Source: Thermoplasmatota archaeon (lineage in GTDB: Archaea; Thermoplasmatota; Thermoplasmata; Halarchaeoplasmatales; Halarchaeoplasmataceae). From it: a stretch of DNA of 64,000 nt. The notes below the pieces were generated by a model. It searched no databases, was not told the origin of the DNA, and saw nothing but the letters and a program-made list of their open reading frames with translations. Positions 24,239 to 59,776 of this stretch are shown piece by piece. The number at the start of each line of letters is the position of its first letter. Positions within the stretch are counted from its first letter, which is position 1. The DNA lies in NCBI GenBank assembly GCA_018334755.1, contig JAGXLI010000001.1:21023-85022 (forward strand). Reading direction: 5' to 3'. The position numbers and the translations under genes were made by a program.

Positions 24239-26461
24239 ATGGCCAGAAGACGTTTGGATATGATGAGTAGGATATTTACACTCATGGTCATCTCCTTTTT
24301 AGCTTTGGGCGTGGTCTCAACATCACAGGCCTCTCTCTCCACTCCAGAACAGGCTACTGTTATCTCCCCACGGAGTACTGAGGAAGTAGAAAGTGACTAC
24401 CAATCTCACGGGTCGATAAGGATAGATTCTAACGAGGACTTCGCAGCCCAGGCTGAACAAGAAAACTGGCCCGGGAACGGAACCGCGGAAGATCCTTACA
24501 TGATAGAGGGATACGAGATAGACAGTAAGGGCTCTGGTTACTGCATCTATATTGGGAATACCACCGTAAACTTTGAGATCAAGGACAATTACCTCCATGG
24601 GGCGAGCGGGAATGATGGGAGATTCTTTAGAAACTCCGGGGTGTATCTACGCAACGTAAAGAACGGTCTTGTTACCAATAACACGGCGGTGAATAACGAG
24701 TACTATGGTATCTACCTCTTAGGGTCTCAAAATATCGCCGTTATCAACAATACTGCGAGGAAGAACGATATGGGGGTCGCCCTCGAGGAGTACAGCAAGG
24801 AAAACACGGTGGCAGACAACACAGCCTCGGAAAACGGGTATCACGGGATACTTCTGATGGGATCTAGCGATAATAATGTTATCAAAAACAACATCGTCTC
24901 GAACAATACCAGAGCCGGGGTTCGGATCGAAGGGTCTAACGATAATTTAATCTATCACAACCGATTACTTGAAAACGGCAATCAGGCCTATGATGACGGA
25001 AATAACAGTTGGGACGATGGAGACCCTGCGGAAGGCGGTGGCGGTGGAAATTACTGGTCGGATTACAAGGGAAATAACAGAGGAGACGGTATAGGCGATG
25101 ACCCTTACCGCGTGGAGGGAGATGGTAATCAAGACGATTATCCGTGGGTAAATATTCGGATGATCCATCCAGCGGGTAGTTTCAATATCTCTGTAAAGGA
25201 TATTCCCGTCGGAGAGTCTCCAATTATAGAGATATCCGACGGGTACGATGTGCACGACAACCTCCTGAACGGTGATTACAGCGTAGAAGTCGTGGTAAAC
25301 AACAGGACGGAGAGGAAGGAACTGACATTTTCTCAAGGCGATTCAAAATATGTTGGAAAAGAAATGAATGAGACCGGCGAATATACCGCCAAAGTTACTA
25401 TAGATGGCGTCACTGGATATGATACCTTTTCCGTGGGGGTCGAAACCCAGGGAAGGATCGAGATCGAGCCGGAGGGAAAAACCGTCCATGCAGGCCAGAA
25501 GGTCTCTTACACGGCAACGGAGTATGACGAGAACGGCTCTGAGGTAGGGAACGTGACCGAAGAAACGGAGTGGTCGATAGAGGATGGAGCGGGTGGCAGC
25601 TGGGATCAGTCCCGGGGGTTCTATACTTCGGAGAACGTCGGCGAATGGAAAGTTACAGGCACCTACGAGGAACTGACCGATAATGAAACTCTAACAGTCG
25701 TTCCGTCGGATTATAATCTCACGATATCTATCCAGGGGGAAGGGAGTACGGATCCATCCGAGGGTATACACGCCTACGAAGACGGTACCGAGGTCGATGT
25801 AACGGCCATACCGGACGAGGGCTGGTATTTTGCCGGGTGGACTGGAAACATTACCAGTGGTGAGGGGGAGATCACGGTGAAGATGGACAGCCATAAGAAC
25901 TTAACCGCCAACTTTCAAAAGGAAGGAGTCGAATACTTCGATGTGAAGATCATCTCATGGGATGAAGAAGCGGGGAAAGAAGATAAGCTGACGGTAACCT
26001 ACAGAGTTAAAAACATGGGTAAAGAGAAGGGCACACAGGATATAGCCTTTTATGTAGATGGCAAGAAAATCGATAGGAGGAAGGACGTCGCCATCCCGGC
26101 CGGAGAAAATCGTACCGATCATTTCACCTGGGAATTTGAAGAGGGAAGGGAATACGAAATCGAAGTTGCCAGCAATGATACGACCGATTCAGAGATGGTG
26201 ACAGTAGATGGTACTTCCTCCCTTGATGAAGAGAGTCCAATATTGGGGATATTGAGCCACTACTGGTGGTTGGTACTTCTTGTGGTGATAGTAGCCCTCG
26301 CCGGTATGGTTTTCGTTATTACCCGAGGTAAAGGAGACTCGGAGGGAAAAAAACCGGAGCAGCCCCCTGCTCAGAAAAAACAGTATCAAGATTTCCCTAC
26401 AAGCGAATCGTTTGAAGAGGAGAAAGGAGAGCGCTCCGACTCCTCTAAGTATGACTTCTAG
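24239..26461 (+). CDS. surface protein with a right-handed parallel beta-helix (NosD/PbH1-like) region, Ig-like domains, a C-terminal TM anchor and a charged tail
   Basis: Signal peptide. PbH1 repeats (NNTAVNNEYYGIYLLGSQNIAVINNTARKNDMGVAL...NNIVSNNTRAGVRIEGSNDNLIYHN). The C-terminus is HYWWLVLLVVIVALAGMVFVI followed by a K/E-rich tail. Confidence 0.7.
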   Translation: MARRRLDMMSRIFTLMVISFLALGVVSTSQASLSTPEQATVISPRSTEEVESDYQSHGSIRIDSNEDFAAQAEQENWPGNGTAEDPYMIEGYEIDSKGSGYCIYIGNTTVNFEIKDNYLHGASGNDGRFFRNSGVYLRNVKNGLVTNNTAVNNEYYGIYLLGSQNIAVINNTARKNDMGVALEEYSKENTVADNTASENGYHGILLMGSSDNNVIKNNIVSNNTRAGVRIEGSNDNLIYHNRLLENGNQAYDDGNNSWDDGDPAEGGGGGNYWSDYKGNNRGDGIGDDPYRVEGDGNQDDYPWVNIRMIHPAGSFNISVKDIPVGESPIIEISDGYDVHDNLLNGDYSVEVVVNNRTERKELTFSQGDSKYVGKEMNETGEYTAKVTIDGVTGYDTFSVGVETQGRIEIEPEGKTVHAGQKVSYTATEYDENGSEVGNVTEETEWSIEDGAGGSWDQSRGFYTSENVGEWKVTGTYEELTDNETLTVVPSDYNLTISIQGEGSTDPSEGIHAYEDGTEVDVTAIPDEGWYFAGWTGNITSGEGEITVKMDSHKNLTANFQKEGVEYFDVKIISWDEEAGKEDKLTVTYRVKNMGKEKGTQDIAFYVDGKKIDRRKDVAIPAGENRTDHFTWEFEEGREYEIEVASNDTTDSEMVTVDGTSSLDEESPILGILSHYWWLVLLVVIVALAGMVFVITRGKGDSEGKKPEQPPAQKKQYQDFPTSESFEEEKGERSDSSKYDF

Positions 26462-27223: not shown

Positions 27224-30200
27224 ATGCGTGAAAAAGTCTCTTTTATAGTCATCAGTTTATGTATGGCTGCATTGTTGGTGATAGGCGGTGTCTCCACTGC
27301 TACTTTTTCTAGCGGTCCTGACACTGGCACGGAAAAACAGACGACAGGGGAAAATCACATATTGATAGAAAAACCGAAGGATTTCTCTCCAACCGAATTC
27401 AATCTTGAGATCGTAGAAGACTATGGATCTACCCTCCTGATAGAACCCGACTCTGGAGGAATACAATTGAGCTCGAGCGATGATTTCACTGTCCTGAATG
27501 ACAATCTGAACAAGATATATCTGAGGAGAGAGACCATAAACGTGAACACTGAACCTTCGCTCCAAGTGGCTGAAGGTGTTGAAGATGGCTATTACATGAT
27601 AAAGACCATCGGGCCTGTAAAGCCAGAGTGGCAGGAAACCTTGGAGGAAGAAGGCGAGATAGTGGATTATATACCCCAGAACACTTATGTCATGGAAATA
27701 AGCTCTAGTGGTTTAACGAACATCAGGGAGAAAGATTTCGTCCAGTGGATCGGAGAATATAAGCCGGAGTACAGGATTTCCCCGGAGCTTGAAGATGCAG
27801 AGGGAAATATTAAGGTGACCATCAGCTGCTATAGGGAGACTTTTCAGGTCGGGACAGAAGTGGAAGAATTTGGAGATGTTATCAAAACCGGTGAGGAGAC
27901 CCTCACGGCAATAGTGGATAGCTCAGATATAAAAGATATAGCCAATATAAAAGGTATCAGTTGGATAGAAAAGGATACAGAGATGCAACTGATGAATGCA
28001 GATGCTCAATGGACTGTCCAGACAGGAAATACTGGTGAACGATCGGTCTGGGACCACGGATTGACCGGCGACGGTGAGATCGTCGGTATCTCGGATACCG
28101 GTATCGATTACGATCATTCTGCATTCAGGGATCCAGATGATAACCCGATCGGTTTCGACCATAGAAAGATAGTCAGATACAAGGCGTATGCGGACGATCA
28201 TGACCTGGACGAGAGCGGGCACGGCACCCATACCTCGGGTAGTATAGCCGGTAATGATTCCCCGTTCGGTTCGAACTCCAACGATGGGATAGCCAAGGAC
28301 GCAAGGTTGTCATTCTTCGATGTGGGTGGAGATGGAGATAGCCTGGAACTCCCGAGCGACTATTCAGAGATATTCCAGCCAGCTTATGATGACGGCGCCA
28401 GAGTACATTCCAACAGCTGGGGAGGACAGGACAGTTCCTATACCTCCGACGCCAAGGATGTAGACGAGTTCATGTGGAATAATAAGGATATGCTTATATT
28501 GTATGCTGCGGGTAATGCTGGGGATGGTGCCAGTACGATAGGCACTCCAGCGACCGCTAAGAATTTGATCTCAGTAGGCGCCTCTGGAGACGGAAATAGA
28601 GAAGTATCTAAGAACGATATGGCGAGCTTCAGTTCGAGAGGTCCGACCGACGATGGGAGGATGAAACCTGAAATTGTAGCTCCAGGCGCTGGAGGCGAAG
28701 GTACTTATGGAGATGATGACATCATCTCTGCGGACTCTGACGGGGATCTGAGCACTGATAACAGCGGCTACACGGATATGCAGGGCACCAGCATGGCCTG
28801 CCCCGTAACTGCGGGAGCGGCCGCATTGGCCCGAGAATATTTCGTGAAGGGTTATTATCCTGATGGAGATGTATCGAACCCCTCGGCAGCATTGATAAAA
28901 TCGGTTCTGGTCAACAGCGCCGAAGAGATAACTGGCAGCGGGGCTTACGCCAATGATGACAGCTATCCCAACGATGATCAAGGATTCGGTCGTATAGAAC
29001 TGGAGAACGCGCTTGAGTTCAGCGGAGACAGCGAAGATCTAAAAGTATATGACGAGACAAGTGGATTGGGTACCGGTGAGACCGATACTTACACTGTCGG
29101 AGTAGAAGATACCTCTCAGGCCCTGGAGATCACGATGGCCTACACCGATTATCCAGGTTCGACTTCATCGAGTAAAGCTCTAGTGAACAATTTGGATCTT
29201 AAAGTCACCGCACCAGATGGTTCGGTTTATAAAGGCAACGTATACAGTGGTAAGAACCCTGGTCAATCCACTACAGGTGGGAGTTATGATGACCTCAACC
29301 CGTTGGAGAACGTATTGAGACTTTCTCCACAATCCGGAGAATACACCATAGAAGTCATAGGTAATAATGTTCCTGAAGGTCCTCAGCCATATGCTCTTTC
29401 TTTGACCGGCGGTTTCAGCTCTTCCGGCGGAGGAGGAAACACGGCGCCTGTAGCTGACTTCAGTTACAGTCCGACCGATCCCGGCACGGGAGAGACGGTT
29501 CAGTTCACGGACCAATCATCTGACAGCGACGGAAGCATAAGTTCACATTCATGGGACTTCGGTGACGGCTCGACCTCGAGTTCTTCTGATCCTTCTCACA
29601 ATTACTCATCTTCGGGCACTTATACTGTACAACTGACCGTAACGGATGACGGGGGAGCTACGGACACGGCTTCTCAGGACCTCTCGGTAGGATCAAGCAG
29701 CGGCGGAGACGGATACAGCACGGTAAACGGTGGAGATACTAGCTATGGAGAGTACATAACGAACGTGCAGTTCAACGGGATAAACAAGGACTCGGGAGAC
29801 GATGGAGGTTACGCTGACCATACCGGAAGCGTGTCTAACAACGTAGAGCCGGGACAGACCTACGAGCTCTCGGTGACGTTGAGCACGGAAGGTTACTCGG
29901 ACTACGCTTCAGTGGCTATAGACTGGGACCAGGATCAAGACCTCAGTAACGATCAGGTTATAGAGATAGGTAATGGGAACAGCGATCCGCTGACGGTCAC
30001 GGAGCAGATAACCGTACCTTCTGATGCGGCGGAAGGAGAGACGAGGATGAGAGTGATGCAGGAATACGACGGTTACCATACCGATCCGACATCTGATCAG
30101 AGTTATGGAGAGACCGAAGATTATACCGTTTCAGTAGGTTCTAACAGCGGTGGAGGGAACACGGCTCCGGTCGCTGACTTCAGTTACAGCCCGACCGATC

Positions 30201-32182
30201 CCAGCACGGGAGAGACGGTTCAGTTCACGGACCAATCATCTGACAGCGACGGAAGCATAAGTTCACATTCATGGGACTTCGGTGACGGCTCGACCTCGAG
30301 TTCCGCGGACCCATCACACAGTTACTCATCTTCAGGCACTTATACTGTACAACTGACCGTAACGGATGATGAGGGAGCTACGGACACGGCTTCTCAGGAT
30401 ATCTCGGTAGGATCGAGCAGCGGCGGAGATGGATACAGTACGGTAAACGGTGGAGATACTAGCTATGGAGAGTACATAACGAACGTGCAGTTCAACGGGA
30501 TAAACAAGGACTCGGGAGACGACGGAGGTTACGCTGACCATACCGGAAGCGTGTCTAACAACGTAGAGCCGGGACAGCCCTACGAGCTCTCGGTGACGTT
30601 GAGCACGGAAGGTTACTCGGACTACGCTTCAGTGGCTATAGACTGGGACCAGGATCAAGACCTCAGTAACGATCAGGTTATAGAGATAGGCAATGGGAAC
30701 AGCGATCCGCTGACGGTAACGAAGCAGATAACCGTACCATCGGATGCGGCGGAAGGAGAGACGAGGATGAGAGTGATGCAGGAATACGACGGTTACCATA
30801 CCGATCCGACATCTGATCAGAGTTATGGAGAGACCGAAGATTATACCGTTTCAGTAGGTTCTAACAGCGGTGGAGGGAACACGGCTCCGGTCGCTGACTT
30901 CAGTTACAGCCCGACCGATCCCAGCACGGGAGAGACGGTGCAGTTCACGGACCAATCATCTGACAGCGACGGAAGCATAAGTTCACATTCATGGGACTTC
31001 GGTGACGGCTCGACCTCGAGTTCTTCTGATCCTTCTCACAGTTACTCATCTTCAGGCACTTATACTGTACAACTGACCGTAACGGATGATGAGGGAGCTA
31101 CGGACACGGCTTCTCAGGATATCTCCGTAGGATCGAGCAGCGGCGGAGACGGATACAGTACGGTAAACGGTGGAGATACTAGCTATGGAGAGTACATAAC
31201 GAACGTGCAGTTCAACGGGATAAACAAGGACTCGGGAGACGATGGAGGTTACGCTGACCATACCGGAAGCGTGTCTAACAATGTAGAGCCGGGACAGACC
31301 TACGAGCTCTCGGTGACATTGAGTACGGGAGGTTACTCGGACTACGCTTCAGTGGCTATAGACTGGGACCAGGATCAAGACCTCAGTAACGATCAGGTTA
31401 TAGAGATAGGTAATGGGAACAGCGATCCGCTGACGGTCACGGAGCAGATAACCGTACCATCGGACGCGGCAGAAGGAGAGACGAGGATGAGAGTGATGCA
31501 GGAATACGACGGTTACCATACCGATCCGACGTCTGATCAGAGTTACGGCGAGACCGAGGATTATACCGTTTCGGTAAATGCAGATGGATCAGGCGGCGGT
31601 AGCGGTGATGGATACAGCACGGTAAGTGGTGGAGACACGAGCGATGGGGAGTACATTACGAACGTGCAATTCAATGGGATAAACAAGGATTCAGGAGACG
31701 ACGGAGGTTACGCAGATCATACCGGAAGCGTGTCTAACAACGTAGAGCCGGGACAGACCTACGAGCTCTCGGTGACGTTGAGCACGGAAGGTTACTCGGA
31801 CTACGCTTCAGTGGCTATAGACTGGGACCAGGATCAAGACCTCAGTAACGATCAGGTTATAGAGATAGGCAATGGGAACAGCGATCCGCTGACGGTTACG
31901 GAGCAGATAACCGTACCATCGGATGCGGCGGAAGGAGAGACGAGGATGAGAGTGATGCAGGAATACGACGGTTATCATACCGATCCTACGTCTGATCAGA
32001 GTTATGGAGAGACCGAAGATTATACGGTCTCGGTAGGCGCACAGAGTACAAATGCAGTGGTTGAGGGATCGGCTGAGGATTTGAACTTTCAGTCAGCTGA
32101 TTCCTTCCAATCTCATCAAACAAATGATCTGAATCTGATTGAAGAAGCTGAGATAAGAGTTCCCGGTAAAACTACCATTTAA
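27224..32182 (+). CDS. secreted subtilisin-like (S8) protease with a fervidolysin-like beta-sandwich, three PKD domains and four GEVED-like domains
   Basis: Signal peptide. Catalytic motifs DTGIDYDHSAF, HGTHTSGSIAG and GTSMACPVTAGAAA. The PKD domains read FSYSPTDP.TGETVQFTDQS...SWDFGDGS...GTYTVQLTVTDD. The modules ending ...MRVMQEYDGYHTDPTSDQSYGETEDYTVSV match the GEVED-domain terminal signature. There is no C-terminal TM helix. The N-terminal pro-domain is paralogous to that of the giant protein. Confidence 0.85.
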   Translation: MREKVSFIVISLCMAALLVIGGVSTATFSSGPDTGTEKQTTGENHILIEKPKDFSPTEFNLEIVEDYGSTLLIEPDSGGIQLSSSDDFTVLNDNLNKIYLRRETINVNTEPSLQVAEGVEDGYYMIKTIGPVKPEWQETLEEEGEIVDYIPQNTYVMEISSSGLTNIREKDFVQWIGEYKPEYRISPELEDAEGNIKVTISCYRETFQVGTEVEEFGDVIKTGEETLTAIVDSSDIKDIANIKGISWIEKDTEMQLMNADAQWTVQTGNTGERSVWDHGLTGDGEIVGISDTGIDYDHSAFRDPDDNPIGFDHRKIVRYKAYADDHDLDESGHGTHTSGSIAGNDSPFGSNSNDGIAKDARLSFFDVGGDGDSLELPSDYSEIFQPAYDDGARVHSNSWGGQDSSYTSDAKDVDEFMWNNKDMLILYAAGNAGDGASTIGTPATAKNLISVGASGDGNREVSKNDMASFSSRGPTDDGRMKPEIVAPGAGGEGTYGDDDIISADSDGDLSTDNSGYTDMQGTSMACPVTAGAAALAREYFVKGYYPDGDVSNPSAALIKSVLVNSAEEITGSGAYANDDSYPNDDQGFGRIELENALEFSGDSEDLKVYDETSGLGTGETDTYTVGVEDTSQALEITMAYTDYPGSTSSSKALVNNLDLKVTAPDGSVYKGNVYSGKNPGQSTTGGSYDDLNPLENVLRLSPQSGEYTIEVIGNNVPEGPQPYALSLTGGFSSSGGGGNTAPVADFSYSPTDPGTGETVQFTDQSSDSDGSISSHSWDFGDGSTSSSSDPSHNYSSSGTYTVQLTVTDDGGATDTASQDLSVGSSSGGDGYSTVNGGDTSYGEYITNVQFNGINKDSGDDGGYADHTGSVSNNVEPGQTYELSVTLSTEGYSDYASVAIDWDQDQDLSNDQVIEIGNGNSDPLTVTEQITVPSDAAEGETRMRVMQEYDGYHTDPTSDQSYGETEDYTVSVGSNSGGGNTAPVADFSYSPTDPSTGETVQFTDQSSDSDGSISSHSWDFGDGSTSSSADPSHSYSSSGTYTVQLTVTDDEGATDTASQDISVGSSSGGDGYSTVNGGDTSYGEYITNVQFNGINKDSGDDGGYADHTGSVSNNVEPGQPYELSVTLSTEGYSDYASVAIDWDQDQDLSNDQVIEIGNGNSDPLTVTKQITVPSDAAEGETRMRVMQEYDGYHTDPTSDQSYGETEDYTVSVGSNSGGGNTAPVADFSYSPTDPSTGETVQFTDQSSDSDGSISSHSWDFGDGSTSSSSDPSHSYSSSGTYTVQLTVTDDEGATDTASQDISVGSSSGGDGYSTVNGGDTSYGEYITNVQFNGINKDSGDDGGYADHTGSVSNNVEPGQTYELSVTLSTGGYSDYASVAIDWDQDQDLSNDQVIEIGNGNSDPLTVTEQITVPSDAAEGETRMRVMQEYDGYHTDPTSDQSYGETEDYTVSVNADGSGGGSGDGYSTVSGGDTSDGEYITNVQFNGINKDSGDDGGYADHTGSVSNNVEPGQTYELSVTLSTEGYSDYASVAIDWDQDQDLSNDQVIEIGNGNSDPLTVTEQITVPSDAAEGETRMRVMQEYDGYHTDPTSDQSYGETEDYTVSVGAQSTNAVVEGSAEDLNFQSADSFQSHQTNDLNLIEEAEIRVPGKTTI
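29433..31592 (+). repeat. three direct tandem copies of a 720-bp unit, more than 95% identical, each encoding one PKD plus one GEVED-like module; a fourth partial copy (GEVED only) extends to about 32040
   Basis: Units start near 29433, 30153 and 30873 with nearly identical strings (ggaaacacggc[gt]cc[tg]gt[ac]gctgacttcagttacag...). The antisense shadow ORFs 30332..30541 and 31052..31261 are identical as a consequence. Confidence 0.85.
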
Positions 32183-45951: not shown

Positions 45952-46638
45952 TCACATAACTTTCTGATAGTATAGCTGAGTTCTTAAGTTTCTGCTGCTG
46001 CCCTGGCCTCTTAGGGTACTTTTATCGGATGATGTAGAGTCCGGCAGATCGTATTCTTCGAGCAGGTCTTCGACAAGATCCTCGTCTTTGGTCATATCGA
46101 CCAACTTCTGCTTTCCAAATTTTTTACCAAGGTCATAGACTATGTCTTTTGTGAAGAATTCGTCTTTTCTTTCGGGGTTCAGTACAGCGTACGCGTTCGG
46201 AGTGTTGGCCAATTCCAAGAGACTGTTATTCTTCAGCATCCCGCTGACTATTTTTCTGAAGTACTTCCCGTGCTTTAGACGCTTGATGGTTGCTTTATCC
46301 ACGTAGGGAAGCATGTCCTTCAAGAATTTAGATAGGTTCACCCGATTCGTATTTTTATAGGTCTCCCATCTCTCGCTGTGTTCTTCCTTTATATAGGCTT
46401 CTTTCCCGACCTCCTCCCTAATGGTTTTGGATTTCAAGAAGTACGGATGGGTCTGGAGCTTCTTTTCTACACTTTTTACATCCTTTAAAGATCCATCTTT
46501 TAGATGCCGGAGTTTTAGATAATCGGTGTGCTCTTCTTTCCTGTGGTTGAATTCTTGGATCCTCTTCTGATTACAGTATCTTCTCATGACTGTCTGGTTT
46601 ATCTCGATGAGCTGGAACTCTCTTATTCTCAGCTCCAT
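45952..46638 (-). CDS. hypothetical highly basic (Lys-rich) protein
   Basis: 228 aa, no recognised motif. It is divergently arranged with the small GTPase gene. Confidence 0.4.
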   Translation of the reverse strand: MELRIREFQLIEINQTVMRRYCNQKRIQEFNHRKEEHTDYLKLRHLKDGSLKDVKSVEKKLQTHPYFLKSKTIREEVGKEAYIKEEHSERWETYKNTNRVNLSKFLKDMLPYVDKATIKRLKHGKYFRKIVSGMLKNNSLLELANTPNAYAVLNPERKDEFFTKDIVYDLGKKFGKQKLVDMTKDEDLVEDLLEEYDLPDSTSSDKSTLRGQGSSRNLRTQLYYQKVM

Positions 46639-46914
46639 ATTATAGTTTATATGGTTCTGATTATTTACGTGTTATGGTGGGAAAGTATTGCCTTTTTCGA
46701 ACTTGCTCTTGTCGAGAGTTGAGTGCGTTTCCTCACTAAAGAGACGGGGTCTACATATCCTTATCCTCGTCACCACTCTAGAGGACAGGATTAAAAGATA
46801 GGGGAAGCAAATTCGGTTACGTTTAAAATCAAAAGTGCGAAATATATGGGAAGAAAAAACTTTTATTATACTAAAAGATTGCCAATATCGAGCAAGAAGT
46901 GGATAGGAGATAAA

Positions 46915-47730
46915 ATGAGAGGTAAAAAGAGTAAAAGAAAAGTCAATCTTTTGGGTGAAGCTGGTGTAGGCAAAACGTCCTTAACACTCCGTTTTGTCAA
47001 AGACATCTTCGGGGAGGAGTATTTGAAGACCATAGGCACGAACATATATACCAAGGAGGTTCCGGTTACGGGTTCTGAAGTAAAGCTCGTCATCCACGAT
47101 ATCATGGGTGATACTGATTTTGATACAGTTAGGGAGACGGCGTTTGAAAAATCGACTGGAGCTATAGCCGTAGCCGACTGCATGAGGAAGGAGAGTCTAG
47201 ATAAACTTATCGAGGACTGGCTGCCCAAATATAAAGAAGCGGCAGTGGATAATGCCCCTATCATCCTGGCTGTCAATAAAGTAGATCTAGAAGATCACGA
47301 GATCACGGAAGAGGTAGTGACCGACGAGGCACCATTTTATTTTGATAGCGTCTTTTATACCTCTGCTAAGATGGGTAAAAACGTGGAAGATATGTTCAAA
47401 GAGCTCGGGTTCAGGGCCGTCTATAATAAGCCGTCCTTGGCGAGGAAAGGGGAAGATATCGTGACCATGGATAAAAGGATAGATGACCCAAGAAAATTGA
47501 TGTCCGCCCTTCTCACTTATGCCTCCACGAAAGGTGACATGTCTTACTCTACCAGAGAGGAGATATTCGAACAGAGCGGGATAGACAAATTTTCTTTAAA
47601 TGAGGAGATGTCTGAGGACAATACTTTGTCTTTTGCCGACGGATTGATCGAGTGGTACGAGGAAGACGATGATACCGAGTCAGCTAAAGCTGTCAGGAAT
47701 TTACTCGAAAAATATGAGAAAGAGTCATGA
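46915..47730 (+). CDS. Ras-superfamily small GTPase (Rab/Ras-like G domain) with a roughly 110-aa acidic C-terminal extension
   Basis: G1 GEAGVGKTS, G2 Thr in YLKTIGT, G3 DIMGD (DxxG, with Asp in place of Ras Gln61), G4 NKVD, G5 TSAK. The ORF track begins at 46846, but ATG at 46915 is preceded by GGAGA. Confidence 0.7.
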   Translation: MRGKKSKRKVNLLGEAGVGKTSLTLRFVKDIFGEEYLKTIGTNIYTKEVPVTGSEVKLVIHDIMGDTDFDTVRETAFEKSTGAIAVADCMRKESLDKLIEDWLPKYKEAAVDNAPIILAVNKVDLEDHEITEEVVTDEAPFYFDSVFYTSAKMGKNVEDMFKELGFRAVYNKPSLARKGEDIVTMDKRIDDPRKLMSALLTYASTKGDMSYSTREEIFEQSGIDKFSLNEEMSEDNTLSFADGLIEWYEEDDDTESAKAVRNLLEKYEKES

Positions 47731-48807: not shown

Positions 48808-49053
48808 ATGAGCGAGGAATCGATAAACGAGTACTTGGAGAATAGTAGCCTTGGTTCGAACTGCGAGAATTGTGAGAGCCAGATGAAATTGTTGGACTTC
48901 CGATGGGGCGATACCGAGAGCCATAGAGGCCTAGTGACCATCTTAAATACTATACTGGAAGAGGATGAGATGCTGGACGAACCCTTTCAATATGATAAAT
49001 TGAGTCTAGAGTACTGTGATAACTGTGGTGCTATAAACCTCTCGATATCGTAG
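48808..49053 (+). CDS. small Cys-rich hypothetical protein (zinc-ribbon-like NCENCES...CDNCGA)
   Basis: 81 aa with two CxxC pairs. No homolog recognised. Confidence 0.35.
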   Translation: MSEESINEYLENSSLGSNCENCESQMKLLDFRWGDTESHRGLVTILNTILEEDEMLDEPFQYDKLSLEYCDNCGAINLSIS

Positions 49054-49517: not shown

Positions 49518-50672
49518 ATGCAGTTACCGGATTACGAAGGGAAGAGCATAGTCAATCTGATGAGCTCTATATCAGGGTCGTTCGGGGTTCCCTCGAATTA
49601 TCCGGCTCTTGAAGAGCTGAGATCGGCGGACCTTGAAAATCATAAGAACGTAGTACTTCTAGTGATAGACGGTTTGGGATTTAGATATCTGGATTCTAAG
49701 GAAAGTAACTCTTTCCTGAAACGGAACCTTAAGACAAAGATCACCTCGGTCTTTCCATCATCTACGGCCTCGGCGATACCGACGTTCCTTACGGGAAACG
49801 CCCCTCAGAAACACGCGATAACTGGATGGTACATGCATCTCAAGGAGATAGGAACGGTCTCGACCGCACTGCACTTCGCGCCGCGTTATGGAGATAGGGC
49901 CTTCTCCGAGGACGGGATAGATTTACAGGAGTTGTTGGAGCTAGACCCCATCTATGAAAAATTTGAAAATTCATTCATCGTGACTGATGAAGATATAAAA
50001 GAGAGTGTTTTGAGTAAAACTACGAGCGCGGAAGCTGTAACATATGGATATGAAGATATGGACAGTTTTACTGGATCCTTAGAGAGGGCGGTCAGAGCCT
50101 CGGAAGAAAGAAAGTACATCTATGCTTACTGGCCGGGTTTCGATTCACTAGCCCATGAACATGGAGTCAGCAGTACAGAAGTAGAGCGGCATTTTCAAGA
50201 ACTGGATAAGAAGTTGAAACAGTTCGTTGAAGATATAAAAGATACGGATACCATGCTGATGATCACTTCTGACCACGGCTTCATCGATACGACAGAGGAG
50301 AAGTCAATTAGACTCAAGGATCACCCGGAGATGGAGGAATGTCTCACGCTGCCTATGTGCGGCGATTACAGATCCGCTTACTGCTACTTGCGCCCCTCTA
50401 AGGATGACAGATTTCGTAACTACTGGGAAGACGAATTGCAGGACTTCTGCCGCCTTCACGAGGCTCAGGAACTTATAGAAAAAAATTACTTCGGCATCCA
50501 TGAGCCGGATCCCAAGCTCTTCGATAGGATCGGGGACTACGTCTTGATCATGAAGGAAAATTACACGATGCAGCACGGATATCCTAACAAGGACGATCCG
50601 TTCATGATAGGTCAACATGGAGGAGTGACCGAAAAGGAGATGTGGACCCCACTCTCAGTTATCGAATTGTAG
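49518..50672 (+). CDS. alkaline-phosphatase-superfamily enzyme (nucleotide pyrophosphatase/phosphodiesterase-like)
   Basis: LLVIDGLG metal site, VFPSSTASAIPTFLTG (nucleophile Thr/Ser motif as in NPP FPTkTfPNH.sivTG) and ITSDHGF. Confidence 0.65.
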   Translation: MQLPDYEGKSIVNLMSSISGSFGVPSNYPALEELRSADLENHKNVVLLVIDGLGFRYLDSKESNSFLKRNLKTKITSVFPSSTASAIPTFLTGNAPQKHAITGWYMHLKEIGTVSTALHFAPRYGDRAFSEDGIDLQELLELDPIYEKFENSFIVTDEDIKESVLSKTTSAEAVTYGYEDMDSFTGSLERAVRASEERKYIYAYWPGFDSLAHEHGVSSTEVERHFQELDKKLKQFVEDIKDTDTMLMITSDHGFIDTTEEKSIRLKDHPEMEECLTLPMCGDYRSAYCYLRPSKDDRFRNYWEDELQDFCRLHEAQELIEKNYFGIHEPDPKLFDRIGDYVLIMKENYTMQHGYPNKDDPFMIGQHGGVTEKEMWTPLSVIEL

Positions 50673-55372: not shown

Positions 55373-58300
55373 TCATCTATCTCTTGACCCTTCTCCTGGG
55401 TTCTCTTCATGATCGGAAGTTTCTTTCTCTTCTCCACTTCCATAAAAGAATGGAGGTACTTCTTCTACAGATTGGCCAGAGTTCTCTTCGAGATCCTCAT
55501 CCAAGTCCTCTTCCACGTCATCCTCTAGGCTTTTACTCTCCTCGTCTTCAAAGTAAGAAGTTTCATCATCAGGTCGATCCTCATCGTTCTCTTCAAAACC
55601 GATATCCTCGGACTCTTCTTCTCTTTCCTTTCTTCTCATAGCCAGCATCGCTATCAAAATTATAAGCAGGATAACTATCAGGGGGATAAACCACCAGTAA
55701 TCTGAGAGCGTCCTGTCCTCGTCCGATCGACTCTCTGAATCTTCTCCATTACCATCATCTTCGGCACTTTCGATCTTGAAGTCGATCCTTTCCGTTCCAC
55801 TATTCCCGACCTCGTCTACGGCTTTTACCCTGACAGTGTGGTTACCTTCCGAAAGATTTGTGAAGTCATGTCGGGTAGCTGTTCCAGTATCTATCCATCC
55901 TTCTCCATCTATACAGACTTCGTATCTCTCTATACCGCTCCCGGGATCTTCGCCCTCCCAATCTACCGAAACGGACTCATTCGAGAGTAGTGATCCTTTG
56001 ACCGGTTTTATGACTTCGATGGAAGGGGCCGAAGTGTCTACGTAAACACTTGTGGAATTATCGACAATGATCTCTTCCAGATTACCCGAGCTGTCTTCAG
56101 CGGCGGTGCAGAACTCATAGAGTCCGTCTTTTTCAGATGCCGTAAAGTTGAATATACCTTCGGTTCCAGCACCGGAGATATTTAAACTCTCAAAGTCTTT
56201 CCACTCCCTTCCATCAACTCTGTAGTGGAGCGTTACCTTGGATAGCTCCCTGTTATCGTCCGCGGTGAAATCTACCATGAAGTTGGTCGAGTTGGTGTAT
56301 TCACCCAAACCTTTTTCAAGACTGGCCGAACTTGAGGGAGCTATAACGTCGATAACATCCGTATTTTTTACTTTAGTCTCTTTCCAATTTTGGTTCTCAT
56401 CTACGGCGGAAAAGTGATACTTCAAGGAAGAGGCATCTTCTGGCACTTCTTCGATCGATTGATAGGTGTGAAGTCCAATCTTTTCTAGTGTGATATTATT
56501 TATCGACTCGTTATCGAACCCGTAATTCAGGAAAACATCGTCTATCTCATCTTCATCGTCAACCACGGCCTCGAACGTGAAGTCCATCCCGGTTTTTGCC
56601 TCGGAGGAAGACCTATCGAATATCCGAGGTGAGGTGAAATCTGTGGTCATCACTTCTGTCCTGTTCCAGTTCTGTGAACTATCCACCACGTTGGCGTAGT
56701 AGCTCAATTTGTTAGCATCGTCCGGTATTTCAAGTACGGTCCCATAGATATCGCTGCCAGTCTTTTCTACGCTTATATTTTTGTACTCGCGGTCATCGAA
56801 CCAATAATTCAGGTATACATCGGAGACTTCTATATTGTCCTTGGCATCGATCTTCACCACGTACTCGTTCTCCCCACCGCCTTCCATCCCAGGGCTCTTA
56901 TCTTCAATGAAGGGCTTGTCATCATCTATCACCTCTCTACGGTACATTTCGGTGGAATTCCAATTCCCGGAAAGATCTTTTGCCCTTATGGTGTAATTCA
57001 ATTCCGTGGCGGAAGACGGTACCGAGATCTCCTTGGAATATCTTCCCGGTCCCGTTCTATTCATAGTTAAATTCTTTTCATCGGTCACGTCGGTCTCGTA
57101 GTTGAGTAAAACTTCGCTGACCTCGATATTATCAGAGGCCGAGGCTTCGAATACATGATCATCGCCTGTAGTCATATCGGTCGAACTCTTATCGAAGATC
57201 TTCGGAGCCTCTATATCATCTACTGGGACCTCGACTTCCTCGGTCCTGTTCATATTACTAGATTCGTCCTCGGTTACGATCCTGTAGGTCAGCTTTTCAG
57301 CATCGGATGGTATTTCTATCTTTTTTCTAAATGTGACTTCTCCCAGCCTGTCCGAGCTCTGAATGTCCATCGGGATGTTCTTAGTAGTTATTCCCCCATC
57401 TTCCTTATGTACAGAATAATTGACATGGGTGTGATCGATCTTCATCTCATCTTTCACCGTAGCGTTAAAAGTGTAATTCATCCCGGTTTCAGCGCTTTTT
57501 TGGCTGTTATCCGTTATTTTCGGCTTTAGGTAGTAATCCAATATGGCCTGTACGAAGGTCGCATGGGTCCATGTCAATGGATTGGCGGTACTCCCTCCTC
57601 GATAGGCCTGCCCCAGTCTTCCGTCACCGTAATCTTTTGTGGTCTCGGGCAGATAGTTCAATGGAGACCTGGCCTGCATCGCGCGCCACATGTATCTGTC
57701 ACTTACGTTCCTCCTGCCGGCTCTGGTGCAATAAAAGGAAAGGTACAGATATCGGTTGGTCCAGTCATGGGTGAAGTTCCATCCCGGACCGGGACTTGGA
57801 TCATGGGCCGTCGAATATTCAAAGGTATCTTTTATCCGCGGATCGTCAGGTGAATGCACGTCCAGCCACCACATGGAAGGTACCCAGTCTAGACCCCCGT
57901 TGGGATACGTATAATAATGCTCGTCGTCCGGGCTGCTCGGCGGATCGGGCATGGGATCGATATCATTATCTGTCTGGTTGTAAACGATCCTCTGGAGATA
58001 TACGCTTTCGTTCTCGTCCCAGAGGTGTTCCTCTATCCCCTGGTAGACTCTAGAAGAGGCGTTCATCAGTTCATCTCTGAATTGCTCGTCTTTGCCCAGT
58101 ATAGAAGCTATCTCTCTCGTCCGGTTCCAGGCCGCCACGGCTAGCGTGTTTGACCAGAAACTCTGGCTCCACTCGAATGGACGTTCATTATAATCGCAGT
58201 GCGGTACCAAAAGGTCGTTATCCCATATCCTTTCGGTCAGATAAGAAGCTGCGGGTTTGATCGTCTCATTATAGTAATTTTTCAACCAAGTTTTGTTTTC

Positions 58301-59776
58301 AGTATGCAGGTAATGATACCAGGCGCCCATCACGACCAGTGAGGGTTGGTCCAGTTCTGGCCCGGCCTGCTGATCGGGGAGATAATCTACTGCGCCGACA
58401 GCCTTTCCATCTGGGTTATAAGATTGGAGCCATCCCCCGTCGTCCTCTTGTACCGAAGCCATGAACTCGTAAAATTTACGTGCTTCTTCATGATAGCCCG
58501 CGGAGTCATAGGTCCAGGCGATATACGTCCCGTCACGGGGCCAGCTCTGTTTATATTCCGGTTGGATCAAAGGAGAGGCGGGGATGTGTCCGAGCTTTTC
58601 ATTGAAATTACCCCGCATGGTGATGAGTGCTCGTCGATAAACTCTTTCGGTAGTTTCATTGAGACCCGATGGGATCTTCGCCTTAGATATCCAATCCTTC
58701 CACCAATCCGTGGTCTCGGTCCTGAGCGAGTCCCAACCTTTCTCTCTTGCCATAGACAAACGCTCTAAAGATTCGGTCTTGTTTTTACCCATGGAGAAGA
58801 AAAGGGTCACCTCTTCGTTTTCCTCTGGGGCCAGTTCTCCCAGATCGAATTCCATATAATCGTTTCCTTTTCCAGTGGTCAAGTTCTCGTTGTCTTGTAG
58901 ACCCTCTTGGACGGCATCGTAGGCGCTGTCCCCGCCCCAGTCCCCTAAAAAGAGTTTGCTTATGTTCCTGTCCGAACCGATGGACAATGTGAAGGGATCA
59001 TCACCGTTCGGACCGGTATAAGTTATCGCGTCTTTAGATCCATTGTAGGTGATATCGTTCTGCCATCGGGGGTCGATGATCCCCTGTTTGGGCCAGTGAA
59101 AATTGGTTTCCTGGCTGTATATATCGAATGTGAAGTAATGGCCGTCCTGCTCCGGAGCATTTCCCTGTTTAGCTCTGTTCAGGTTGAACTGTGAATAATA
59201 TGTGAGGTTGAAAAGCGCTTCTATATCCCGCTCGTTGGTGAGATCGAAATGCTGGACCAGGACCGGTTCGTGTTTATAGGCGAAGGCAGTATTTTTTAAA
59301 GTATAGTTAGATGTTTCATGCTTCATATCTACGATCATAGAGTCCTCCCTGAAGGACATCTCGTGATCGGAGGCGTTACTCACCCATCTATAATCATCGT
59401 TCATCCTGACGCCGGGCCTTCCTCCCATCCATTCTTTGTGGGATGAGATCCTGGGCGGTTCTCCATACTTGTTCTCGTAACCGGCGTGACTAGAGTTGTA
59501 TTCCATGTGAGCGTAATAGCCGACCCATGGGTACATGAAATTCTGCATAGTTCCTTGGGCGTCGAAAGAGGCACTGAGAGAACGGGAATTGCTGACCACT
59601 GCGTAACTGTCGCAGGCGCCGAAGGCAGAGGCGGTATAGTCCTTGTCCTGAAGCTCGTTTTCCTTTTCAGGATCGTTCTCCGATTCTCCCTCGACGTTGA
59701 TACCTGGTAAAAGCAGAGATGTCAATATAACTGCTGTCACTACACAGATCTTGACATTCTTTTTCATCGTGCTCAA
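55373..59776 (-). CDS. large (1467 aa) membrane-anchored surface protein with an N-terminal GH15 (glucoamylase-like, alpha/alpha6 barrel) domain, Ig/FN3-like repeats, a C-terminal TM helix and a long acidic tail
   Basis: Signal peptide. KQSWPRDGTYIAWTYDSAGYHEEARKFYEFMASVQEDDGGWLQSYNPDGKAVG fits the GH15 WxRD plus G.W.Q.Y..DG region. Then come at least 5 beta-sandwich repeats (..NYS..VTFRKKIEIPSDA..L.Y). The C-terminus is DYWWFIPLIVILLIILIAMLAM followed by a roughly 100-aa D/E-rich tail. Confidence 0.7.
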   Translation of the reverse strand: MSTMKKNVKICVVTAVILTSLLLPGINVEGESENDPEKENELQDKDYTASAFGACDSYAVVSNSRSLSASFDAQGTMQNFMYPWVGYYAHMEYNSSHAGYENKYGEPPRISSHKEWMGGRPGVRMNDDYRWVSNASDHEMSFREDSMIVDMKHETSNYTLKNTAFAYKHEPVLVQHFDLTNERDIEALFNLTYYSQFNLNRAKQGNAPEQDGHYFTFDIYSQETNFHWPKQGIIDPRWQNDITYNGSKDAITYTGPNGDDPFTLSIGSDRNISKLFLGDWGGDSAYDAVQEGLQDNENLTTGKGNDYMEFDLGELAPEENEEVTLFFSMGKNKTESLERLSMAREKGWDSLRTETTDWWKDWISKAKIPSGLNETTERVYRRALITMRGNFNEKLGHIPASPLIQPEYKQSWPRDGTYIAWTYDSAGYHEEARKFYEFMASVQEDDGGWLQSYNPDGKAVGAVDYLPDQQAGPELDQPSLVVMGAWYHYLHTENKTWLKNYYNETIKPAASYLTERIWDNDLLVPHCDYNERPFEWSQSFWSNTLAVAAWNRTREIASILGKDEQFRDELMNASSRVYQGIEEHLWDENESVYLQRIVYNQTDNDIDPMPDPPSSPDDEHYYTYPNGGLDWVPSMWWLDVHSPDDPRIKDTFEYSTAHDPSPGPGWNFTHDWTNRYLYLSFYCTRAGRRNVSDRYMWRAMQARSPLNYLPETTKDYGDGRLGQAYRGGSTANPLTWTHATFVQAILDYYLKPKITDNSQKSAETGMNYTFNATVKDEMKIDHTHVNYSVHKEDGGITTKNIPMDIQSSDRLGEVTFRKKIEIPSDAEKLTYRIVTEDESSNMNRTEEVEVPVDDIEAPKIFDKSSTDMTTGDDHVFEASASDNIEVSEVLLNYETDVTDEKNLTMNRTGPGRYSKEISVPSSATELNYTIRAKDLSGNWNSTEMYRREVIDDDKPFIEDKSPGMEGGGENEYVVKIDAKDNIEVSDVYLNYWFDDREYKNISVEKTGSDIYGTVLEIPDDANKLSYYANVVDSSQNWNRTEVMTTDFTSPRIFDRSSSEAKTGMDFTFEAVVDDEDEIDDVFLNYGFDNESINNITLEKIGLHTYQSIEEVPEDASSLKYHFSAVDENQNWKETKVKNTDVIDVIAPSSSASLEKGLGEYTNSTNFMVDFTADDNRELSKVTLHYRVDGREWKDFESLNISGAGTEGIFNFTASEKDGLYEFCTAAEDSSGNLEEIIVDNSTSVYVDTSAPSIEVIKPVKGSLLSNESVSVDWEGEDPGSGIERYEVCIDGEGWIDTGTATRHDFTNLSEGNHTVRVKAVDEVGNSGTERIDFKIESAEDDGNGEDSESRSDEDRTLSDYWWFIPLIVILLIILIAMLAMRRKEREEESEDIGFEENDEDRPDDETSYFEDEESKSLEDDVEEDLDEDLEENSGQSVEEVPPFFYGSGEEKETSDHEENPGEGSRDR

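Follow-up and report, generated by a model that had tools for sequence, protein, structure and literature searches.

Expanded repertoires of Ras-like GTPases with dedicated regulators are usually regarded as characteristic of eukaryotes and of their Asgard relatives. The archaeal Rab-like proteins have been described with short C-termini (PMC4915359, PMC10933270). The prokaryotic Ras-like proteins known as Rup were surveyed by Wuichet and Sogaard-Andersen (2014), leaving out proteins of more than 240 aa; the archaeal group 2 of that survey is crenarchaeal, and in its group 1, which also lacks the Gln of G3, the genes lie in conserved contexts alongside those for membrane proteins and signal transduction (PMC4316618). 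Another archaeal small GTPase, ArvA, holds an MMR_HSR1/Arf-like G domain, with arvB (DUF2073) and arvC (DUF2072) directly downstream of its gene (PMC10927574).

The protein described here is encoded within a 64-kb stretch of DNA (the window) from a Ca. Thermoplasmatota archaeon MAG. With moderate confidence, it is regarded as a cytoplasmic, receptor-linked switch of the Ras superfamily, in the Rab/Ras/Rho branch, and as one member of a lineage-specific, multi-copy family of halo(alkali)philic Thermoplasmata. A literature search found no earlier description of this GTPase family or of a receptor–GTPase module, and the family is large and undescribed.

G domain and the residue at the Gln61 position

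Among the Pfam models, Ras matches the protein best (106.8 bits, against a cutoff of 21.6), followed by Roc (72), Arf (34.9), and GTP_EFTU (28.8), whereas MMR_HSR1 reaches 16.5 bits and the scores for the Era, Der, and Obg models fall far under their cutoffs. The small-GTPase alpha/beta fold is present, and the best matches in both sequence and structure are Rab-like and Ras-like GTPases, such as Rab21, Rab1, and the Thorarchaeota Rab 7EZB. These scores bear out the preliminary description, which had proposed a Ras-superfamily small GTPase and not a translation factor or an Era/Obg-type protein. Judged by its sequence, the protein falls in the Rab/Ras/Rho branch of the Ras superfamily of GTPases (PF00071), which corresponds to the "Rup" type in the prokaryotic nomenclature.

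That the protein is a vesiculating GTPase like ArvA, or belongs to some other archaeal small GTPase group already known (MglA, Arf-like), and acts in membrane remodelling is very unlikely. The protein is an archaeal small GTPase from a lineage of euryarchaeal grade, ArvA is widespread in Euryarchaeota (PMC10927574), and the gene is set among membrane and surface-protein genes. However, both the profile scores, with Arf and MMR_HSR1 so far below Ras, and the gene context contradict it, as DUF2073 and DUF2072 are absent from all annotated loci. MglA itself was also discarded, because neither the loss of the G3 Asp nor the coupling to a stand-alone MglB gene is found.

The canonical G1–G5 set noted before is invariant or nearly so across the family, and by these motifs all the nucleotide-binding elements are in place (all features of the GTPase gene given here lie on the + strand). 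The P-loop or G1, GEAGVGKT (46954..46977), occupies residues 14–21 of 271, with G14, V18, G19, K20, and T21 invariant in 37 members. Switch I/G2, YLKTIGT (47020..47040), holds the Mg-binding Thr39, with Y36, L37, K38, T39, and G41 invariant, and YLKT[IVL]G is present in 115 of 120 family members. G3, at the start of switch II, is DIMGD (47098..47112), which aligns to DTAGQ of Rab21 and places Asp66 at the position of Ras Gln61. G4, NKVD (47275..47286), responsible for guanine specificity, has an invariant N121, and K122 and D124 are conserved in at least 90% of the members (NKxD in 118/120). Finally, S150, A151, and K152 of G5, SAK (47362..47370), are invariant. The protein shares with the Rab/Ras-like proteins of eukaryotes and Asgard archaea the G-domain fold, the G1–G5 motifs, and a Rab-like TIG in switch I. 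Unlike them, its family holds Asp or Glu in place of the catalytic Gln. Contrary to eukaryotic-type Rabs, it has no prenylatable Cys (CC, CXC, or CAAX) and ends in ...LLEKYEKES.

The catalytic Gln immediately after DxxG is absent from this protein, as the preliminary description had stated in reporting an Asp in its place. That observation stands for the protein itself, but the substitution across the family is mostly to Glu (102 of 120 members), with Asp in 15 and Gln in only one. A Gln after DxxG is a typical trait of the superfamily rather than an obligatory one, because several accepted members, such as Rup group 1, also lack it. Ras Q61E has been reported to have a raised intrinsic GTPase activity, taken to support general-base catalysis (PMC2987813, PMC10515638), so that the dependence on a GAP acting in trans predicted earlier does not follow from an acidic substitution. 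Both cases place a carboxylate at the position of the catalytic Gln; however, Q61E is an engineered eukaryotic mutant, whereas here the carboxylate occurs naturally and is conserved across a whole family, with Asp in the clade of the window protein. The canonical Gln would be replaced in GTP hydrolysis either by this carboxylate acting as a general base or by the completion of the active site by a partner.

Family extent and the C-terminal domain

More than 120 homologues of approximately 270 aa each were found, almost solely, among those seen here, in halo(alkali)philic Thermoplasmata (Ca. Halarchaeoplasmatales and relatives). By sequence, the family has two hallmarks: the G3 motif D-[IV]-M-G-[ED], and an acidic, predicted helical C-terminal domain of approximately 95 aa. 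The best 80 of 492 matches yielded 91 full-length members in 40 species genomes, with up to 8 copies per MAG among those same matches (i.e., at least 8 in one MAG). This describes a separate archaeal lineage with many Ras/Rab-type paralogues per genome, a natural carboxylate at the catalytic-Gln site, and a private domain. Many members already bear the NCBI label "Rab family GTPase", and such generic labels, including "GTP-binding protein", give way to a definable family that comprises at least three subfamilies, each specific to a partner. Two unannotated domains are also flagged as worth modelling.

The C-terminal domain is joined to the G domain by a linker (residues ~171–189; 47425..47481), poorly conserved and modelled with low confidence, as indicated by its variable alignment columns and a pLDDT below 50 at residues 175–181 of the full-length model. 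The domain that follows (residues ~190–271; 47482..47727) is predicted by AF2 to form a compact, all-helical bundle (pLDDT about 82–94, pTM 0.72) of four long helices plus a short turn, and holds a conserved SGIDKF loop, a WY, and a KY. The acidic domain had been described before as being of unknown fold. It is conserved and falls in no assignable family: Pfam searches with each member, a profile search of the PDB, and Foldseek gave no significant match. Its profile, when run against 1.84 billion representative proteins, found matches only within the GTPase family and no other architecture holding the domain. Of the 12 representative matches, three (P0151, P0157, and P0158) are artefacts of repeats or low complexity, and those of short length represent fragments. 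This private bundle may work as the protein-interaction module of the GTPase.

In Rag/Gtr (G plus roadblock), Roco (Roc plus COR), and RJL/DNAJC27 (Rab plus J), a folded domain for binding to partners or to itself likewise lies C-terminal to a Ras-like G domain. None of the three accommodates the present family. In comparison with Rag/Gtr, the C-terminal domain is all-helical, with only 0.4% in hhalign against MglB/LAMTOR2; the tandem gene copies (see below) are recent duplicates and not two ancient lineages; and no Gtr1_RagA match was obtained at E <= 0.1 in the Pfam scan of the window protein. Neither the COR domain directly after the G domain of Roco proteins, usually with LRRs before it, nor the C-terminal J domain with an HPD motif of RJL is found. 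The family also departs from eukaryotic-type Rabs in holding a folded helical domain instead of a C-terminal hypervariable tail, from the archaeal Rab-like proteins in the same folded domain of approximately 95 aa and in its occurrence in Thermoplasmata rather than in Asgard archaea, and from Rup in this private domain and in the replacement of the Gln by an acidic residue specifically. In common with Rup, it has a prokaryotic G domain of the Ras-like kind, with G motifs resembling those of eukaryotes, and no adjoining stand-alone MglB gene.

Compact helical bundles often serve oligomerisation, and the nearest structural matches of the C-terminal domain include designed helical oligomers. Both features are consistent with a GAD-type switch, in which the bundle would join two GTPase chains (a homodimer, or a heterodimer of tandem paralogues) and catalysis would take place across the interface, a mechanism compatible with the receptor-linked switch that would account for the Gln missing family-wide. 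Same-strand tandem pairs or triples are indeed frequent, and 30 of 88 loci hold more than one Ras-like match. Nevertheless, identity is 0.67–0.82 within a tandem pair versus 0.56–0.79 between same-position copies across genomes. The tandem copies are, therefore, recent duplicates, which rules out ancient heterodimeric pairs and any conserved A/B pair of the RagA/RagC kind, and numerous members, the window copy among them, have no second copy at their locus. A GAD-type switch is thus considered unlikely.

Gene neighbours and the tail-domain partner

The GTPase gene is divergent from a gene encoding a Lys-rich protein of 228 aa (45952..46638), with which it shares an intergenic region of 277 bp. 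This neighbour, with a pI of 9.4, is among the few basic proteins of an acidic proteome, while the C-terminal domain of the GTPase is acidic, and it is conserved in a lineage-restricted manner, with approximately 30 homologues. These features had suggested that it could be a regulator or effector of the GTPase, such as a GAP that supplies the missing catalytic residue in trans. However, no 228-aa homologue was detected by tblastn in eight loci of family GTPases (L001–L008), and the protein was a singleton when the proteins from 77 later genome loci were clustered. Conversely, four loci around 228-aa homologues contain no family GTPase; the nearest Ras-like gene, 5.6 kb from one of the homologues, belongs to a different, 209-aa family, and their neighbours vary (NikR, ParB/gyrase, and a methyltransferase). 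No homologue was found beside a family GTPase, either in 12 homologue loci or in the loci of the 228-aa protein's own homologues. The absence of the association in related genomes, which had been set beforehand as the refuting observation, refutes the pairing, and a role of this protein as a regulator or effector is now very improbable. By gene neighbourhood and sequence, the conserved partner of the subfamily of the window GTPase is a class of tail-domain proteins, whose genes are normally immediate neighbours of the GTPase gene, and not the 228-aa protein.

This partner was found by clustering the neighbour proteins of the 77 genome loci, followed by searches with an HMM of the tail domain, a conserved domain of approximately 130 aa located on the cytoplasmic side of the partner proteins. 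A tail-domain protein is encoded within three genes in 19 of 22 relatives with at least 58% identity to the window GTPase, and in 23 of the 30 members of its own subfamily (group 6). Most of the partners are giant, single-pass, adhesin-like surface proteins, whose genes are usually arranged tail-to-tail with that of the GTPase, the stop codons lying 10–25 bp apart. In these proteins, an ectodomain with CARDB, Big_7, Flg_new_2, GLUG, or Big_9 domains is followed by a transmembrane helix, a Lys-rich stretch, and the tail domain. In the other type of partner, a STAND ATPase-TPR protein (AAA_16 plus TPR_MalT), the tail domain is inserted between Walker A and Walker B. Three paralogous GTPase loci of a single genome, JAZKSP (L016, L025, and L028), each have their own partner. 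Reciprocally, all 11 metagenome loci picked out by their tail domain only carry an adjacent, convergent GTPase gene, although they come from two metagenomes only. A word-indexed search for homologues of the tail profile gave just 11 proteins, short and unannotated.

The flank on the side of the GTPase gene away from the partner is not conserved. Some of the adjacency could, however, reflect synteny inherited among related MAGs, and the convergent genes of GTPase and partner are not co-transcribed, which counts against coupling. The subfamilies also differ in their neighbours, since in others the GTPase gene is found next to genes for DUF835 proteins, Zn-ribbon proteins, or other GTPases, or has none, so that the members of the family are unlikely all to share one mechanism. 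The tight linkage of the GTPase gene to genes for transmembrane surface proteins concerns one subfamily.

A weak signal, sub-significant throughout, relates the tail domain to Roadblock/MglB-like domains. Robl_LC7 matches 2–3 of 17 members with an E of 0.02–0.03, in a constant register but below the cutoff, and a profile search of the PDB gave no Roadblock match, with no significant match in Pfam or the PDB overall. When aligned by hhalign to a Roadblock reference, the domain reached a probability of 36% over 39 columns, versus 0.4% for the control, and 20% with a larger alignment; against a longin reference the value was 0.3% (the reference sequences were checked against the PDB). For Roadblock and longin alike, the results from Pfam, the PDB profile, and hhalign, with the enriched alignment as well, were all sub-significant.

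By analogy with MglA–MglB, Rag–Ragulator, and the actinobacterial conservon, a small GTPase is here genetically coupled to a compact, possibly Roadblock-like domain and, as in the conservon, to a membrane-spanning, sensor-like protein. Unlike in those systems, the GTPase is of the Ras/Rab type and not of the MglA or Rag type, and the candidate platform is not a free protein of approximately 120 aa but forms the cytoplasmic end of a giant surface protein or lies within a STAND ATPase. Partners consisting of single-pass surface proteins and STAND ATPases with a common domain of approximately 130 aa also set the family apart from Rup. The receptor-linked switch favoured here would then involve the GTPase as the intracellular partner of receptor-like surface proteins, with the tail domain serving as a docking, GAP, or GEF platform, as Roadblock proteins do for MglA or Rag. 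A more extended model is put forward tentatively: halo(alkali)philic Thermoplasmata may hold a receptor-coupled small-GTPase system outside Asgard archaea and eukaryotes, in which dozens of variable adhesin-like receptors and STAND sensors would each bear a conserved cytoplasmic Roadblock-like platform that docks and regulates a dedicated GTPase through its C-terminal domain, the cassette having been duplicated many times per genome and the window gene having been uncoupled from its receptor. If the coupling is functional, it would represent a prokaryotic case, evolved independently, of outside-in signalling by way of a small GTPase, and a natural system to study Gln-independent GTP hydrolysis.

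Alternatively, the C-terminal domain could be a death-fold-like module (PYD, CARD, or DD) for homotypic assembly, and the family, together with the STAND ATPase-TPR neighbours, part of an NTPase-based conflict or immunity system. This is improbable. PADLOC returned no match for the GTPase, the 228-aa neighbour, or a type A partner, and the STAND partner matched only generic TPR models, which led to the defence-system reading being dropped.

The window copy and its upstream region

Within the 64 kb of the window, neither tblastn nor a six-frame HMM search found a tail-domain gene, so that the partner model is carried over to this GTPase from its relatives. The surface proteins of the window do hold transmembrane anchors, but their tails are short and of low complexity. 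The window copy is a solo paralogue, whose partner, if any, is encoded outside the 64 kb.

The gene is a real one: the ORF at 46915..47730, of 271 aa plus stop, is 100% identical to MBS3815975.1 (P0001), annotated as "GTP-binding protein". Both domains show a dN/dS of 0.05–0.15 against the closest relatives, which points to an intact copy under purifying selection. A 294-aa version beginning at the first ATG was dropped in favour of the 271-aa form, as all 10 homologue genes inspected have an in-frame stop upstream. The second ATG (46915) is probably the true start, because the homologues all begin there and the upstream extension is not conserved; together with the identity to MBS3815975.1 and the dN/dS, this makes 46915..47730 the most likely expressed form. 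The in-frame extension of 23 codons in the mechanical ORF (46846..46914) contains promoter-like elements and is probably a promoter and 5' leader rather than coding sequence.

One of these elements, the TATA-box-like CTTTTATTATA (46860..46870), can be read from the sequence approximately 50 nt 5' of the ATG at 46915 and has a putative promoter role; CTTTTATT is kept at the equivalent relative position in the closest relative, L001. The other is a Shine-Dalgarno-like GGATAGGAGAT (46901..46911), whose AGGAG ends 5 nt 5' of the ATG and which may act in translation initiation, and L001 holds GGATAGAGAT at the equivalent position.

The Ras-like GTPase family and its C-terminal domain

The gene reported in the preliminary description is present, but not with the start codon first assumed. 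The mechanical open reading frame of 294 residues was confirmed at 46846..47730 (+); however, the second in-frame ATG, at 46915, is the start of MBS3815975.1 ('GTP-binding protein', from a Ca. Thermoplasmatota archaeon MAG, 91-kb contig), which is identical over 271 residues. This start position is common to all aligned homologues, and an in-frame stop lies just 5' of the equivalent codon in ten homologue genes. The putative 23-codon N-terminal extension also contains a TATA-like CTTTTATT about 50 nt 5' of the ATG and an SD-like GGATAG(G)AGAT immediately before it, both shared by the window gene and its closest relative. The longer reading was therefore dropped, and the gene is taken as 46915..47730.

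The original assignment to the Ras superfamily is correct, since the product matches the Pfam Ras model with 1.1e-30 and 106.8 bits (cutoff 21.6), above Roc (72 bits), Arf (34.9), and GTP_EFTU (28.8), while the NCBIfam scan returned only the generic small_GTP domain, with the Era, Der, and Obg models far under their cutoffs. A word-indexed search retrieved 183 homologues, the best 120 of which are nearly all 260–290 residues long and come from Thermoplasmatota MAGs, including Natronoplasma, Saliniplasma, and 'Thermoplasmata archaeon'. Across 37 spread members, the invariant residues are G14, V18, G19, K20, and T21 in the P-loop, Y36, L37, K38, T39, and G41 in switch I, and D62, M64, G65, N121, S150, A151, and K152 in G3–G5, which are predicted to be the nucleotide-binding ones.

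The Asp noticed at the catalytic-Gln position of the window protein is genuine, and an acidic residue there is a signature of the whole family, most often as Glu. Of the best 120 members, 102 have Glu directly behind DxxG, 15 (the window clade) have Asp, and one has Gln; two were not scorable, one being truncated and the other extended at its N-terminus. The dependence on a trans-acting GAP that had been predicted from it is an optional inference and does not follow from an acidic residue alone, since Ras Q61E is cited as hydrolysing GTP faster on its own and as favouring a general-base mechanism (PMC2987813, PMC10515638). The mechanism of GTP hydrolysis that we infer for this family, like any role of the C-terminal bundle, is a putative one. 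Among individual members, P0041 (383 residues) is the only one with the canonical Gln (DIMGQ) and has an added Glu/Lys-rich coiled-coil tail, P0027 (342 residues) holds an extra C-terminal helix-hairpin-helix (HhH)2 module, and P0155 (283 residues), with degenerate switch I and G3 motifs, may be a pseudo-GTPase.

The acidic C-terminal domain, for which the preliminary description had suggested structure prediction, spans residues ~190–271 and is conserved across the family (SGIDKF loop, WY, KY). In isolation it is confidently predicted to form a helical bundle with four long helices and a short turn (pLDDT 84–94, pTM 0.72), joined to the G domain by a low-confidence linker. None of the 37 members gave a significant Pfam match here, and among PDB sequences the profile of the domain retrieved designed helical proteins only (E ≥ 0.04). 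When 1.84 billion cluster representatives were searched exhaustively by HMM, 12 proteins matched, namely full-length family members, their fragments, and three repeat or low-complexity artefacts, and the domain is thus confined to this GTPase family. Its net charge per residue (−0.11 to −0.16) makes it more acidic than the window's proteome, itself acidic (median −0.057, median pI 4.8); a salt-in strategy and acidified proteomes have been reported for Haloplasmatales (bioRxiv 10.1101/2023.07.03.547478). P0151 (844 residues), with 14 near-identical 59-residue repeats that each hold a fragment like the first helices of this domain, seems to be an artefact of assembly or gene calling.

In the literature searched, neither this family nor its C-terminal domain or proposed receptor coupling is described. 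A 2014 survey of Ras-like GTPases in prokaryotes left out proteins of more than 240 residues and therefore would not have classified it; the nearest conceptual relative is Rup group 1, likewise without the Gln and found in signal-transduction neighbourhoods (PMC4316618). For a Thermoplasmatales archaeon and for Aciduliprofundum, a 2016 study noted one Rab-like protein each, of very divergent sequence, and it described archaeal Rab-likes as lacking C-terminal extensions (PMC4915359). The window GTPase also differs from ArvA, the only experimentally studied euryarchaeal small GTPase, which has an MMR_HSR1/Arf profile and a DUF2073 and DUF2072 operon (PMC10927574). PADLOC gave no defence-system match.

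Proteins encoded beside the GTPases

The preliminary description proposed as regulator or effector the divergently encoded, Lys-rich 228-residue protein (45952..46638 (−)), whose pI is 9.4 within an acidic proteome. Neither Pfam nor NCBIfam has a model that matches it, and with ~30 homologues it forms a small family restricted to this lineage. The co-occurrence check across genomes refutes the proposal: tblastn found no homologue in the eight GTPase-centred loci L001–L008, and the protein is a singleton in the clustering of the later genome loci. Its own homologues adjoin varying genes (NikR and an ABC transporter; ParB and gyrase; a methyltransferase), and the nearest Ras-like gene to any of those inspected lies 5.6 kb away and encodes a 209-residue, 36% identical protein of a different family. 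The pairing is local to the window and not conserved; a nucleic-acid-binding role for this protein would be a guess.

Clustering of all flanking ORFs revealed instead, as the chief conserved neighbour, a set of large proteins with a common tail domain of ~130 residues (consensus in alignment A3: ...FLIxxxGxLIxHxTRxxxxxxDxDIFAxMLxAVQxFVxDSF...LNxxEYGDxKIL...LAVVYxG...WxGD). Type A proteins hold a signal/anchor, a long ectodomain with CARDB, Big_7, Flg_new_2, GLUG, or Big_9 repeats, one transmembrane helix, a Lys-rich stretch, and the tail domain at the extreme C-terminus, which the positive-inside rule places in the cytoplasm. Type B proteins are STAND ATPases (AAA_16 plus MalT-type TPR) with the tail domain between Walker A and Walker B. 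This insertion, an unusual place for a module, is seen for the tail-like domain in L023_5, L033_5, L033_6, L034_1, L035_5, and L075_3.

A tail-domain protein lies at most three genes away in 19 of the 22 relatives with at least 58% identity to the window protein, usually as the immediate neighbour, encoded tail-to-tail on the other strand. In the window protein's subfamily by average-linkage grouping (30 members, 18 genomes), 23 members have such a neighbour (17 type A, 6 type B). Reciprocally, a metagenome scan seeded on the tail domain alone gave 11 loci, from two soda-lake metagenomes and so partly dependent on the MAGs, all 11 carrying a convergent family GTPase with 10–25 bp between stop codons, and three of them a second copy in tandem. 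In the JAZKSP genome, three paralogous GTPase loci (L016, L025, L028) are each accompanied by a separate type A partner and differ on the other flank, suggesting duplication of a two-gene cassette. The GTPases of this subfamily are best read as normally coupled to receptor-like proteins via this common cytoplasmic domain, with which they would interact physically.

The predicted strand-strand-helix-strand-strand-helix pattern of the tail domain, together with its pairing with a small GTPase, points to a putative Roadblock/MglB-type platform, a weak likeness, but one with a consistent register. Robl_LC7 was matched at E 0.02–0.03 in two to three of 17 tail domains, in one register, with traces of longin families. 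With hhalign, the tail domain aligned to MglB of M. xanthus and T. thermophilus and human LAMTOR2 (MglB/LAMTOR2 sequences being exact PDB matches) at a probability of 36% over 39 columns, falling to 20% with a larger tail alignment, versus 0.4% for the GTPase's own C-terminal domain as control and 0.3% for the tail domain against a longin reference. The PDB profile search gave no Roadblock match for the tail domain.

Surface proteins of these archaea, including type A partners (L016, L020, L025, and others) and the window proteins at 24239..26461 (+) and 55373..59776 (−), have in common a C-terminal anchor motif, xWW[PS]YLIL..., in which basic residues come after a hydrophobic helix. It occurs with or without a tail domain after it and may represent a signal for membrane anchoring or sorting that is specific to this lineage.

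Copy number and other Ras-like families

When one genome per species was scanned, 492 stretches coding for relatives were found, a number that may include related Ras-like families sharing the search patterns. The best 80 gave 78 loci (L013–L090), all from halo(alkali)philic Thermoplasmata MAGs except for a few contigs binned under other names. These loci hold at least 91 full-length members, spread over 40 genomes, and as many as eight of them lie in one MAG. A second Ras-like gene is present at 30 of 88 loci. Tandem copies are more similar within pairs (identity 0.67–0.82) than same-position copies are across genomes (0.56–0.79) and are thus recent duplicates, which rules out an ancient RagA/RagC-like pair. 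Typical members with 42–67% identity to the window protein also occur in a Syntrophomonadaceae MAG (L019), a Thermotogae MAG (L059), and two Aenigmatarchaeota MAGs (L024, L089), with a type A partner on L019 and L024; these are most likely mis-binned Thermoplasmata contigs.

A second subfamily (30 members) associates with DUF835 proteins (19), a Zn-ribbon protein of ~150 residues (14), and tandem copies. DUF835 (PF05763, 1.7e-23), which may be a second GTPase-linked adaptor domain, occurs in 19 neighbouring proteins (L038–L048, L053, L062, L074, L078, L079, L089) of 248–307, 500–623 (fused to a DnaA-like AAA domain), or 1048–1427 residues. The Zn-ribbon protein, with a C-terminal CxxC...CxxC, lies between tandem GTPase genes in eight genomes (L038_2, L039_2, L040_4, L042_6, L045_4, L048_5, L053_7, L073_1) and recalls the Zn-ribbon ArvC adjoining ArvA, as well as ArfGAP zinc fingers.

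In a third subfamily, a 277-residue DLIGQ GTPase adjoins in five of five cases (L061, L072, L075, L076, L077), convergent and 0.3–0.9 kb downstream of the family gene; it represents a third Ras-like family, with its own, different C-terminal extension. The second Ras-like family (209–218 residues) keeps the catalytic Gln (DIYGQ) and has an insertion of ~35–40 residues before G5. It is encoded on the opposite strand beside family members, divergent and ~130 bp upstream at L041, L047, L050, L058, and L064, and present also at L053, L067, and L073, often with a 303-residue DUF835 protein and a PQQ/PKD beta-propeller protein.

The window copy

The best reading of the window gene is that of a solo copy from an undescribed family of Ras/Rab-like switches, expanded in Ca. 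Halarchaeoplasmatales-type archaea. Neither tblastn nor a six-frame HMM search found a tail domain within the 64-kb window, and the subfamily has at least four further solo members (L015, L029, L031, L032). The gene is not decaying: its motifs are all intact, and it is under purifying selection, with a dN/dS of 0.05–0.15 against its closest relatives in both domains, dS being saturated in some comparisons.

An MscS channel gene lies directly 3' of the GTPase gene. The surface proteins of the window are two giant subtilase-PKD proteins, one protein with NosD, Flg_new_2, and CARDB domains, one with Big_7, and one of 863 residues without Pfam match. The tail domain is absent from their C-termini, and two of them (740 and 1467 residues) end in a transmembrane anchor and a short low-complexity tail. 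The two subtilases, secreted and encoded at 10146..20627 (−) and 27224..32182 (+), of 3493 and 1652 residues, hold a Peptidase_S8 domain and many PKD and GEVED domains, the larger ending in a striking acidic tandem repeat (EEESTEEELFGEEESGDESSF...). An 81-residue ORF at 48808..49053 (+), between the MscS gene and a type I phosphodiesterase/nucleotide pyrophosphatase gene (49518..50672), has two CxxC pairs (NCENCES...YCDNCGA) with weak zinc-ribbon matches.
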